The notes beneath the pieces were generated by a model. The model saw nothing but the letters and a program-made list of their open reading frames with translations. It had not been told where the DNA came from and made no database searches. A stretch of DNA of 31,573 nt from a bacterium (GTDB lineage: Bacteria; UBP18; UBA7526). Shown here piece after piece: positions 19,740 to 22,691 of this stretch. Location of the stretch: positions 1 to 31,573 of the forward strand of contig DRGV01000054.1 in NCBI GenBank assembly GCA_011049955.1. The letters are read 5' to 3'. Positions within the stretch are counted from its first letter, which is position 1, and each line of letters starts with the position of its first letter. The translations under genes and the position numbers were made by a program.

Positions 19740-22691
19740 TTAGATTCTCTGTAGATTAGCATACTTGACCGCTAATTTTTTTCTCTTTCCTCCAGTGAAG
19801 ACGACCTCTACCTTTCTATCTTCACCGAAGCCGGTTGCTTTAATTATCTTTCCCTTTCCGAACTCAGGATGGATGATGGTCACTCCTACCTTGAACTTTT
19901 CACCTCGAGGAATGAAAACCGCCTCTCCTTCGACACCTGCTTCAGCGATGAACCTTGAGGCTAATCCCCAGTAGGTATTACCATATAGCCTTCTCCTATC
20001 GGTGTAGGTTAAGTAAAGATGCTTCTTGGCTCTGGTAATACCAACATAGCACAGTCTTCGCTCTTCTTCAAGTTCTCTCTCTTCGCTGAAGGCATTGGAA
20101 TGGGGAAGGAAACCCTCCTCCATTCCGGTAATGAATACTGTATCGAACTCCAAGCCCTTGGCATTATGGAGGGTCATCAGGGTAACGGCCTTTGCCTTAT
20201 CGTCCCAGGTATCAACCTCACTAATTAGAGAGACATCCTCCAGGAATGCCTGGGTGCTTTTGTCTTCACTCTTCTCCTCAAATTGATTTGCAGCATCCAT
20301 TAGTTCCTTCAGATTCTCGATCCTCATCTCAGAGGTGAAGGTATCCTCCTTCTCCAGTCGCTTAATATATCCTATCTCCTTAATTAACTTCTTAATTAGT
20401 TCTCCTACCCCCAGGCTCTTGGCAAGTTCCATATATTTGAATATTAAATTCCTAAAATTCTTTACCAACCATTCTGTTCTGGGTGAAAGATTATTCATTT
20501 TCTCAACCTTTCTTATTCCCTCCCAGAGAGTGATCTTATTTTTATTAGCAAAATCAACTATTCTCTGAACCGTAACCTTCCCTATTCCCCGAGGAGGGAC
20601 ATTCATAATCCGCTTCAGGGAAAGAGAATCCTTAGAATTTACCAAGACCCTCAAATAAGCTAAGATATCCTTTATCTCCCTATGCTCATAGAAACCGAGA
20701 GCACCCACTACATTATAGGGAATCCTTGTCTTTCTAAAGGCATCCTCTAAGACACGGGACTGGGCATTTACCCTGTAGAATACCGCCATATCATGATAAG
20801 GAATCCTTTCCTTTTTATGAAGACGTCTTGCCTCATCTACCACATACTCTGCCTCCTCAAACTCATTGGGTAGTGCCTGCAAAACAGGAGCTGGAACCTT
20901 CTCTTTCTGCCTCTTCCCTGCCTGCCGGCGAGGCGGGGGCAGACCCCCCGGAGAGGGGGGCTTCTTTTCCTCGTCAGGAAGGATAATCTTCCCCTTATCC
21001 TTGCACCTTTCCTCATTATAGACAATTAAGTTATTGGCAAGATCGATGATGGGCTGGGTTGACCTATAATTCTCCATCATATTCAGCACAAATACTACGG
21101 AATGGCAATCCTTATAGTCTTTTTCAAACTCCAGAATGTTTCTGATGTCTGCTCCACGGAACTTGTAAATTGCTTGGTCCTCGTCCCCCACCACGGAGAT
21201 ATTCTTATACTTGGAGGCAAGTAATTTAGTAAAAGCATACTGGGCATGGTTAGTATCCTGATACTCATCGACCAGGATATGGATGAACCTCTCCTGATAC
21301 TTCTCCAGGACCTCTGGCTTCTCCCGAAAGAGCTCCACAGTCTTCATTATTAGATCATCGAAGTCTAAAGCATTATTCTTAAATAGTTTCTTCTGGTAGT
21401 GCTCATAAACCCTAGACGCCATCTCCCGATAGAAGTCCTCCCTTGTTTTAGTATAGATGAGGTAGGACTGGTAATCTATCAGGTTCTCCTTCGCCCTGCA
21501 GATGGCACTAGCAAAGGCCGGAGCCCGATACTCCTTGGGATCGATATCCAGTTCTTTTAAACACTCCTTAATCAAGTTCAACTGATCCAAATCATCATAG
21601 ATGACGAAGTTCCTATCGAAACCAATCCTATAGATGTCATGACGGAGTATTCGGGCACAAGTAGAATGAAAGGTCGCAATCCAGATGTCCCGATACTCCT
21701 TCTTGAGTAATTTCGCTACTCTCTCCTTCATCTCATTCGCTGCCTTATTGGTAAAGGTCACCGCCAAAATATTGAAGGGGTCTACCCCCAACTCTTTTAT
21801 CAGATAGGCAATCCTATGAGTAATGACCCTGGTCTTCCCACTCCCCGGACCAGAGAGGATGAGCACCGGGCTTTGAACCCACTTCACCGCCTCCTTCTGC
21901 CTCTCATTCAAATCCTTTAGAATAGATGAATATTCTAACCTGAAAAGTTTTTTAGCATTTTCTGTTGTTTTTTGAGCAATTTCTTCAAGAGTTAAGTTTC
22001 TTAGTTCTGCAATTTTTTCTGCGATGTATTTTAGATAGGCGGATTCGTTTCTCTTTCCCCGAAAGGGGTGGGGAGAGAGGTAAGGACCATCTGTCTCTAT
22101 CAGGAGTTTATCTAAGGGTAATTCTTTCACTAATTCCTGAAGCCTCTTTGCATTCTTGAAGGTCACTGGCCCAGCAATAGAAACATAGAACCCCAAAGAG
22201 ATTACTTCCTCTGCCTCTTCCAGACTGCCACTGAAACAGTGAAATACCCCCTCCTTTATTTTTTCTTGCTTCACTATCTCTATGACATCAGGGAGGGCTT
22301 CTCTATGATGAATGATAATGGGAAGCGTTAATTTCTTGGCTAACCTTATCTGATTCCTAAAGACCTCTCTCTGAACTTCTTTTGGAGAATGGTTATAGTG
22401 ATAATCCAGGCCAATCTCACCAATGGCAACTACTTTCTTACACTTGGCCAATTCTTTTAGCCGGAGGTAAGTATCCTTATCTGCCGTCTTTGCTTCGTGG
22501 GGATGGATACCCACCGTAGCATAGAGAGAATCAAATTCTTCTGCTAATTTTACACATTTCTTACTGCTCTCCAAATCAGAGGCAACCACAATGAGATAAT
22601 CTACTCCCTCTTCCCTTGCCCGGGCAATTACCGCATCCCGATCCTTACCGTAGCAGGGATCGTCTAGATGAATATGGGTATCAATTAACAT
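19740..22691 (-). CDS. Fusion of a TatD-family nuclease (about 252 aa) and a PcrA/UvrD SF1 helicase (about 730 aa)
   Basis: TatD: DTHIH, GEIGLDY, IIHHRE, FHCFSG, ETDGPYL. PcrA: GPGSGKT, TFTNKAA, VDEYQDTN, VGDEDQAIY.FRGA, NYRST, TLHNAKGLEF, EERRLCYVGITRA, C-terminal Tudor-like domain. One continuous frame, no stop codon. Confidence 0.92.
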   Translation of the reverse strand: MLIDTHIHLDDPCYGKDRDAVIARAREEGVDYLIVVASDLESSKKCVKLAEEFDSLYATVGIHPHEAKTADKDTYLRLKELAKCKKVVAIGEIGLDYHYNHSPKEVQREVFRNQIRLAKKLTLPIIIHHREALPDVIEIVKQEKIKEGVFHCFSGSLEEAEEVISLGFYVSIAGPVTFKNAKRLQELVKELPLDKLLIETDGPYLSPHPFRGKRNESAYLKYIAEKIAELRNLTLEEIAQKTTENAKKLFRLEYSSILKDLNERQKEAVKWVQSPVLILSGPGSGKTRVITHRIAYLIKELGVDPFNILAVTFTNKAANEMKERVAKLLKKEYRDIWIATFHSTCARILRHDIYRIGFDRNFVIYDDLDQLNLIKECLKELDIDPKEYRAPAFASAICRAKENLIDYQSYLIYTKTREDFYREMASRVYEHYQKKLFKNNALDFDDLIMKTVELFREKPEVLEKYQERFIHILVDEYQDTNHAQYAFTKLLASKYKNISVVGDEDQAIYKFRGADIRNILEFEKDYKDCHSVVFVLNMMENYRSTQPIIDLANNLIVYNEERCKDKGKIILPDEEKKPPSPGGLPPPRRQAGKRQKEKVPAPVLQALPNEFEEAEYVVDEARRLHKKERIPYHDMAVFYRVNAQSRVLEDAFRKTRIPYNVVGALGFYEHREIKDILAYLRVLVNSKDSLSLKRIMNVPPRGIGKVTVQRIVDFANKNKITLWEGIRKVEKMNNLSPRTEWLVKNFRNLIFKYMELAKSLGVGELIKKLIKEIGYIKRLEKEDTFTSEMRIENLKELMDAANQFEEKSEDKSTQAFLEDVSLISEVDTWDDKAKAVTLMTLHNAKGLEFDTVFITGMEEGFLPHSNAFSEERELEEERRLCYVGITRAKKHLYLTYTDRRRLYGNTYWGLASRFIAEAGVEGEAVFIPRGEKFKVGVTIIHPEFGKGKIIKATGFGEDRKVEVVFTGGKRKKLAVKYANLQRI

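Follow-up and report, generated by a model that had tools for sequence, protein, structure and literature searches.

Contig DRGV01000054.1 of the metagenome-assembled genome (MAG) GCA_011049955.1, analysed here over its entire length of 31,573 nt (the window), carries on its reverse strand a single open reading frame (ORF) in which a TatD-type nuclease runs directly into a PcrA/UvrD-type helicase. This raises the question of whether the locus encodes a dedicated helicase-nuclease, or two neighbouring genes that were joined by mutation. The MAG (785 kb, 53% complete) derives from a marine-sediment run and belongs to the phylum UBP18, which comprises only six species genomes, all in one family. 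The comparisons below argue that the fusion is very probably an accident of one lineage, in which the flip of a hairpin spacer joined the ancestrally separate tatD and pcrA genes into one tolerated chain of ~110 kDa.

Domain content of the fused protein

The fused frame extends from 22691 to 19740 and ends with a stop codon at 19742-19740. The reverse-strand frame is open from 22796, while homology supports the ATG at 22691 (MLIDTHIHL) as the start, a choice backed by every homologue. The features of the fused gene are:

19740..22691, reverse strand: fused tatD::pcrA ORF, 983 amino acids and stop (Pfam, NCBIfam)
21933..22691, reverse strand: TatD (HxH, Group II) domain, residues 1-253 (PF01026, TIGR00010, alignments A1 and A3)
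21924..21932, reverse strand: junction codons TAT TCA TCT (Y254 S255 S256), where relatives have TAG ATG AAT (tatD stop, pcrA Met1, Asn2)
21917..21938, reverse strand: 22-nt hairpin (comparison with contig L034)
19743..21923, reverse strand: PcrA/UvrD-type SF1A helicase part, residues 257-983 (Pfam, NCBIfam, alignment A4)
20904..20960, reverse strand: 19-codon in-frame insert PPSPGGLPPPRRQAGKRQK, absent or different in relatives
19758..19889, reverse strand: Tudor-like C-terminal segment, residues 935-978 (sub-threshold Pfam match and alignment A4)

The order of TatD followed by PcrA/UvrD in one frame, as described in the initial annotation, agrees with the Pfam matches. TatD_DNase (PF01026) occupies residues 3-251 with 313 bits against a cut-off of 27 bits, covering model positions 1-253 of 253, and is followed by full-length matches to UvrD-helicase (PF00580; residues 261-527, 321 bits) and UvrD_C (PF13361; residues 538-898, 249 bits). 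The N-terminal half also matches TIGR00010 (YchF/TatD subfamily; 307 bits, cut-off 206), while its score of 197.8 bits against a cut-off of 395 for NF007745 shows that it is not the equivalog of E. coli TatD. The presence of the N-terminal HxH motif places it in Group II (YcfH/YjjV-type), E. coli TatD being a member of Group I. Residues H6, H8, H63, E92, H128, H151, E199 and D201 are invariant in the TatD alignment (A3), the window protein included, and their role as metal ligands is based on PMC10085689 and on knowledge of the family.

For the C-terminal half, PcrA (TIGR01073) is the top-scoring NCBIfam family, ahead of UvrD and Rep, although its score of 788 bits lies under the equivalog cut-off of 911.2, because the 19-codon insert splits the match into two pieces. 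Helicase motifs Q, I, Ia, II (DEYQD), III, IV, V and VI are intact (A4, PF00580, PF13361), and the A4 columns that are invariant with the window included are Q9, G25-T31, T56-A62, D219-D223, G246-Q250, Y286-S288, T584-E592 and V627-A632. The TatD ligand positions and helicase motifs claimed at first reading are therefore borne out, while the Tudor-like domain claimed alongside them stays below the Pfam threshold (PcrA_UvrD_tudor, PF21196, residues 935-978; 18.4 bits against a gathering cut-off of 23.9), the C-terminal tail nevertheless aligning in A4 with PcrA proteins that carry PF21196. No PD-(D/E)xK nuclease domain was found in the Pfam scan of the fused protein, and the AddA and RecB models match the helicase part only, far under their cut-offs. 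With the frame, the junction and the invariant residues all intact, the original observation of a fused protein is confirmed.

The insert itself is G+C-rich and hairpin-like, its DNA containing CCCCCC-TCTCC-GGGGGG and a second, imperfect inverted repeat. Other low-complexity inserts occur in the PcrA proteins of relatives at the same and at least three further positions (A4), and hairpin-like DNA within essential genes seems to be a habit of the UBP18 phylum.

Inversion of the hairpin spacer at the junction

The TatD half ends in ...KKLFRLE, at precisely the point where TatD terminates as a stand-alone protein in relatives, and the protein sequence across the junction is ...NAKKLFRLE-YSS-ILKDLNERQKEAV. 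In the relatives, the DNA at this point reads CTT TTC AGG TTA GAA TAG ATG AAT ATT CTA AAG, while the window reads CTT TTC AGG TTA GAA TAT TCA TCT ATT CTA AAG. The two differ in six adjacent bases, TTCATC in the window being the reverse complement of GATGAA. These bases form the 6-nt spacer (21930-21925) of a hairpin with the 8-bp arms TTAGAATA (21938-21931) and TATTCTAA (21924-21917), and the uninverted two-gene form would read TAGATGAA at 21925-21932. In a blastn comparison, window positions 21938-21917 are 100% identical to the opposite strand of positions 1493-1514 in contig L034. This is the sole run of six consecutive mismatches in the 1641 nt aligned with L034 and the 1428 nt aligned with L035, and ~1e-5 exact reverse-complement runs of this kind are expected by chance. 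Folded as DNA, the hairpin has an energy of -3.3 kcal/mol in the window and -3.6 kcal/mol in L034. Judged from these alignments, it is the spacer inversion (GATGAA to TTCATC) that appears to have merged the two genes.

Both the stop (TA-G) and the ATG of the next gene lie within the spacer or at its edge, so that a single event removes both signals and, being length-neutral, leaves the frames joined. The uninverted form is common to contigs L032, L033, L034 and L035, and the outgroup L033 has the same TAG ATG without the repeat, which indicates that the split genes came first, then the perfect inverted repeat, and then the flip of the spacer in the window lineage. In the ancestor, tatD and pcrA abutted in the same frame, the position of the tatD TAG immediately before the pcrA ATG suggesting that the two were translationally coupled. 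Stop and start sat in the 6-nt loop region of the perfect 8-bp inverted repeat, and in the MAG lineage the spacer was inverted, most likely by a replicating polymerase switching template between the arms, so that TAG ATG AAT became TAT TCA TCT at constant length. The flipping of a spacer between short inverted repeats through intermolecular template switching has been documented as a type of multinucleotide mutation, one that can also revert (PMC8604942), and background on inverted repeats in bacteria is available (PMC5941160). The cell would then make a chain in which a TatD (HxH) TIM-barrel nuclease is linked through ~4-8 residues to a full PcrA helicase.

Exact-pattern scans say little in this regard, as L034 is not in the scanned collection. 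The pattern TTTTCAGGTTAGAATA-N6-TATTCTA had no match in metagenome_contigs or genome_contigs, while the pattern TTAGAATA-N6-TATTCTAAAGGA was found at 21 loci. Only one of these, L055, is not a chance match; it duplicates the record of L032 and is uninverted.

Presence of the fused allele in independent data sets

The fused allele is real and occurs in two data sets. An independent Logan assembly of the source run contains the junction on a 12,646-nt contig of depth 17.7, with no differences over 21600-22300 and no competing contig at the junction. In data set X3, a subsurface metagenome of another study (2017), a 92-nt unitig spans 21901-21992 with two mismatches, where the uninverted form would give at least six. 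Of four 31-mers sampled from a 60-nt probe, in which every 31-mer overlaps the spacer, two also occur in X3. This support is thin, but independent of the source library. A 304-nt contig of a third data set, X2, has 99% identity in tatD, and its fit breaks off exactly at the spacer edge (21930/21931). This contig is no more than a hint, one that would suit the uninverted allele in a near-identical strain, and X2 is not listed among the runs with junction-spanning words, which does not prove absence.

These data bear on the possibility that the junction is a sequencing, library or assembly artefact and that the true genome reads TAG ATG and has two genes. The low completeness of the MAG, the ability of hairpins to provoke strand-switch artefacts and the break of a related contig (L031) in the left arm would all be in keeping with such an error. 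It is nevertheless extremely unlikely, since a second assembler gives the same junction without an alternative contig, the junction also occurs in the run of a second study, and exactly kept length and frame are atypical of chimeras.

The tatD-pcrA locus in related genomes

Three conserved or contextual neighbours surround the fused gene in the window:

22807..24351, reverse strand: metG, conserved upstream neighbour
24364..25308, reverse strand: mutM/fpg, two genes upstream, context only (synteny with Fpg-annotated genes of relatives)
19351..19641, reverse strand: gatC, conserved downstream neighbour

The proximity of mutM, to which the initial annotation had drawn attention, is supported by this synteny. 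On the 235-kb contig L033, the gene order is holB-PSP1-mutM-metG-tatD-pcrA-gatC-gatA, and tatD ends with its stop at 5763-5765, immediately before the pcrA start at 5766. The same zero-spacer arrangement of tatD TAG and pcrA ATG is found in L034 and L035, and TAG ATG is also kept beside tatD in L032. Separate genes in these relatives speak against the dedicated helicase-nuclease design that was first proposed. Stand-alone tatD genes with 68-87% identity occur at this locus on the metagenome contigs of relatives. Horizontal acquisition of tatD, an alternative raised by the lack of tatD in the five other species genomes, was rejected in view of those stand-alone genes that share 79-87% identity at this site.

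The TatD Pfam model has no match in the other five species genomes of the phylum (75-93% complete), while the same search was positive in 14 of the 14 control genomes. In genome G003 and contigs L001-L003, metG is directly followed by pcrA without tatD, and a beta-propeller (NHL/SBBP-like) gene precedes pcrA in G001, L063 and L004. The metG-tatD spacer of the window (22692-22806) is 115 nt long. A match to the 28-nt metG-pcrA spacer of the tatD-less relatives covers its first ~24 nt (TAGTCTGTTCAATTTGGAAAAGCG...) and marks one edge of a presence/absence polymorphism of tatD.

Further variation is evident on two contigs. In L032 (1773-1830; 3550-4279), tatD precedes, in this order, a leftover of 18 codons from the pcrA 5' end (MNILKDLNKRQRKAVK*), a 572-amino acid Yip1/NHL-like gene and a complete pcrA with a different start (MESILK...), and a 1-nt deletion in an A-run alters the last residues of tatD. 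Contig L031 of the related MAG GCA_022012625.1 ends at 5757-5759 inside the left hairpin arm, directly after GAA, which could be an assembly break from variation at the junction. The tatD/pcrA junction is a hot spot of rearrangement.

Ratios of nonsynonymous to synonymous substitution rates (dN/dS) against relatives are 0.12-0.16 for tatD and 0.05-0.09 for pcrA, values which point to purifying selection on both halves and which mostly predate or straddle the event.

Translation of the fused gene

The linker contains neither ATG nor GTG, in agreement with the description of a short EYSS-type linker without an in-frame ATG/GTG or ribosome-binding site in the initial annotation. The nearest in-frame alternative starts are a TTG at L261 and a GTG at V268. 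A purine-rich AAAGGA stands just 1 nt from the TTG, which has no other such stretch ahead of it, and AGGAGG can be read off the sequence ~2 nt before the GTG. Initiation at the GTG would delete the Q motif, whereas initiation at the TTG would retain it. Elsewhere in the window, other genes are preceded at a distance of ~5-8 nt by Shine-Dalgarno-like motifs, and at the junction no usable motif of this type remains for a separate PcrA. No RNA data set is listed for this stretch. A search with a PcrA query found no second UvrD-like helicase in the genome of the window or in the 93%-complete G003. The lack of a well-placed ribosome-binding site, together with that of a second UvrD-like helicase, suggests that PcrA function is probably provided by the fusion, which would then be at least tolerated. 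Most likely, the helicase is made in fused form only, its product being a PcrA with an N-terminal TatD appendage that the cell tolerates.

It is conceivable, though very unlikely, that the mutation is mildly deleterious or impairs function and persists by drift in a small-genome lineage, leaving either poorly working halves or a low level of free PcrA initiated at the TTG of L261. The dispensability of tatD in the phylum, that of all three paralogs in E. coli (PMC10085689), the very short linker and the retention of the Q motif by a TTG start are consistent with such a course. On the other hand, PcrA is the only UvrD-like helicase found, the allele dominates its own population and recurs in a run differing at 2 of 92 letters, and AAAGGA is placed merely 1 nt from the TTG.

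A number of points weigh against the proposed fusion of two genes by spacer inversion in a single lineage. In the pcrA alleles closest to that of the window (L063 and the second L032 copy), the protein begins M-V/E-S-I-L-K and TC stands directly 5' of the right arm, so that common descent with these alleles would also account for two of the six spacer bases. With the genome 53% complete, another helicase or another tatD may be missing from the assembly, and the translation of the gene as one chain is deduced from the sequence. The X3 unitig has a depth of 2.7 and extends only ~27 nt past the spacer into pcrA. The synonymous divergence (dS) from the nearest tatD-bearing contigs is 0.5-0.8, which leaves the event undated.

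Recombination with an M-V/E-S-I-L-K type of pcrA allele was also considered and rejected, as it would cover the TC and the right arm only, leaving the remaining four bases, the loss of the stop and the unchanged length unexplained.

Distribution and possible function of the TatD-PcrA architecture

A search of 5.8 billion clustered proteins with a junction-spanning query returned the window's own protein as the only one with both PF01026 and PF00580, the next matches being plain PcrA proteins of 711-758 amino acids with 94-96% identity in the helicase part. No fusion was present in the best 150 matches of a 520-amino acid junction query against 1.84 billion representatives, and the few two-stretch or offset matches of this query are without TatD by Pfam. 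A TatD query limited to longer proteins returned TatD+Radical_SAM alone (~450-530 amino acids). This architecture is frequent in MAGs labelled Nitrospirota, and it accounts for the open frames of 456-517 amino acids that surround TatD in several genomes. PcrA was never found beside tatD at 19 TatD loci from other phyla, and the literature search yielded no paper that ties TatD to PcrA or UvrD, either fused or as partners. The TatD-UvrD combination is a singleton rather than a conserved architecture. The impression that the architecture was undescribed thus held in both the protein and the literature searches.

The geometry of the two enzymes would nevertheless lend itself to co-operation. In SF1A helicases bound to single-stranded DNA, domain 1A faces the 3' side and domain 2A the 5' side (PMC8469786), and the fusion attaches TatD to the N-terminal end of 1A, next to the trailing 3' end. 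Group II TatD proteins such as YcfH are 3'-exonucleases of single-stranded DNA and apurinic/apyrimidinic (AP) endonucleases (PMC10085689; for E. coli TatD see PMC4176340). Tethering on the 1A side, combined with this class of 3'-exonuclease, suggests that RecB-style co-operation may be possible in principle, although coupled unwinding and 3'-end degradation is speculative. A prediction of the complex between TatD (A3) and PcrA (A4) scored zero, which counts neither for nor against binding.

On these grounds, the fusion might be a selected helicase-nuclease, in which the motor would feed a 3' end, or the strand of an R-loop or hairpin, to TatD in the manner of RecB or AddA. Such an origin is, however, highly doubtful. 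Besides the geometry and the known activities of Group II, it would draw support from the intact domains under purifying selection, the probable prior translational coupling of the abutting genes in relatives and the occurrence of the fused allele in two data sets. The protein is nonetheless a singleton among billions, relatives have two genes or have lost tatD altogether, none of the 19 loci in other phyla has PcrA beside tatD, and the origin is a chance-type mutation at a hairpin. The initial annotation's design of a dedicated helicase-nuclease accordingly fares poorly against split or tatD-less relatives and a single 6-nt spacer inversion. The dispensability of tatD in E. coli and its repeated loss in the phylum likewise fit a neutral or near-neutral accident better than design.

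A more elaborate and unlikely version combines a reversible micro-switch with a RecB-like machine, whereby template-switch flips would toggle the locus between two coupled genes and one chain, and TatD would trim the trailing 3' end or cut AP sites as PcrA moves 3'-5'. If true, a RecB-like fusion would take the place of an end-processing enzyme in small genomes in which the PcrA query picked up no helicase of the RecB/AddA type.

Returning to the accidental fusion of two genes, the locus has little present weight as a repair machine, because it is a one-lineage accident whose coupled function is speculative. It does provide a clean natural example of a new multidomain protein born in one step, with both enzymes left intact. 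Since the fused and split alleles differ at 6 nt, they form a test case for whether a 3' exonuclease tethered to the trailing side of an SF1A helicase behaves like RecB or not. It is also a warning to annotators that, where a phylum is sparsely sampled, a conspicuous fusion can turn out to be the allele of a single species rather than a family.

Comparison with known systems

TatD has been joined to a second enzyme in the TatD-Radical SAM fusions of Nitrospirota and others, which resemble the window protein in this respect but are unrelated to helicases and represent the only common long TatD architecture found. The N-terminal half shares with Group II TatD proteins (E. coli YcfH/YjjV, human TATDN3, S. 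aureus SAV0491; PMC10085689, PMC7201278) a full match to the TIM-barrel hidden Markov model, the HxH motif and the invariant acidic and histidine positions. It differs from them in its covalent connection to a helicase, and its nuclease activity is a prediction. The C-terminal half has all motifs and the 1A/1B/2A/2B order of the PcrA/UvrD/Rep SF1A helicases (TIGR01073), together with a candidate Tudor-like tail that scores below the Pfam threshold, and the window protein adds an N-terminal TatD of 256 amino acids and a low-complexity insert of 19 amino acids. RecB and AddA likewise join a nuclease to a 3'-5' SF1A motor within a single polypeptide. These are, however, conserved families in which the PD-(D/E)xK nuclease is mostly C-terminal, whereas in the window a TIM-barrel TatD is N-terminal and confined to one lineage.

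The junction closely resembles the template-switch spacer inversions known as Ripley-type quasipalindrome mutations (Abraham & Hazkani-Covo 2021, PMC8604942; PMC5941160) in its unchanged arms, exactly reverse-complemented spacer, constant length and multinucleotide change in coding DNA. The arms are 8 bp long, compared to >9 bp in the yeast cases. In the coding cases seen in the published account (PMC8604942), spacer inversion changed one or two amino acids, whereas here the spacer held a stop and a start and two genes were merged. The interest of the locus lies in this mechanism of birth, behind which stand two known kinds of event, namely nuclease-helicase fusions and spacer inversions at inverted repeats.

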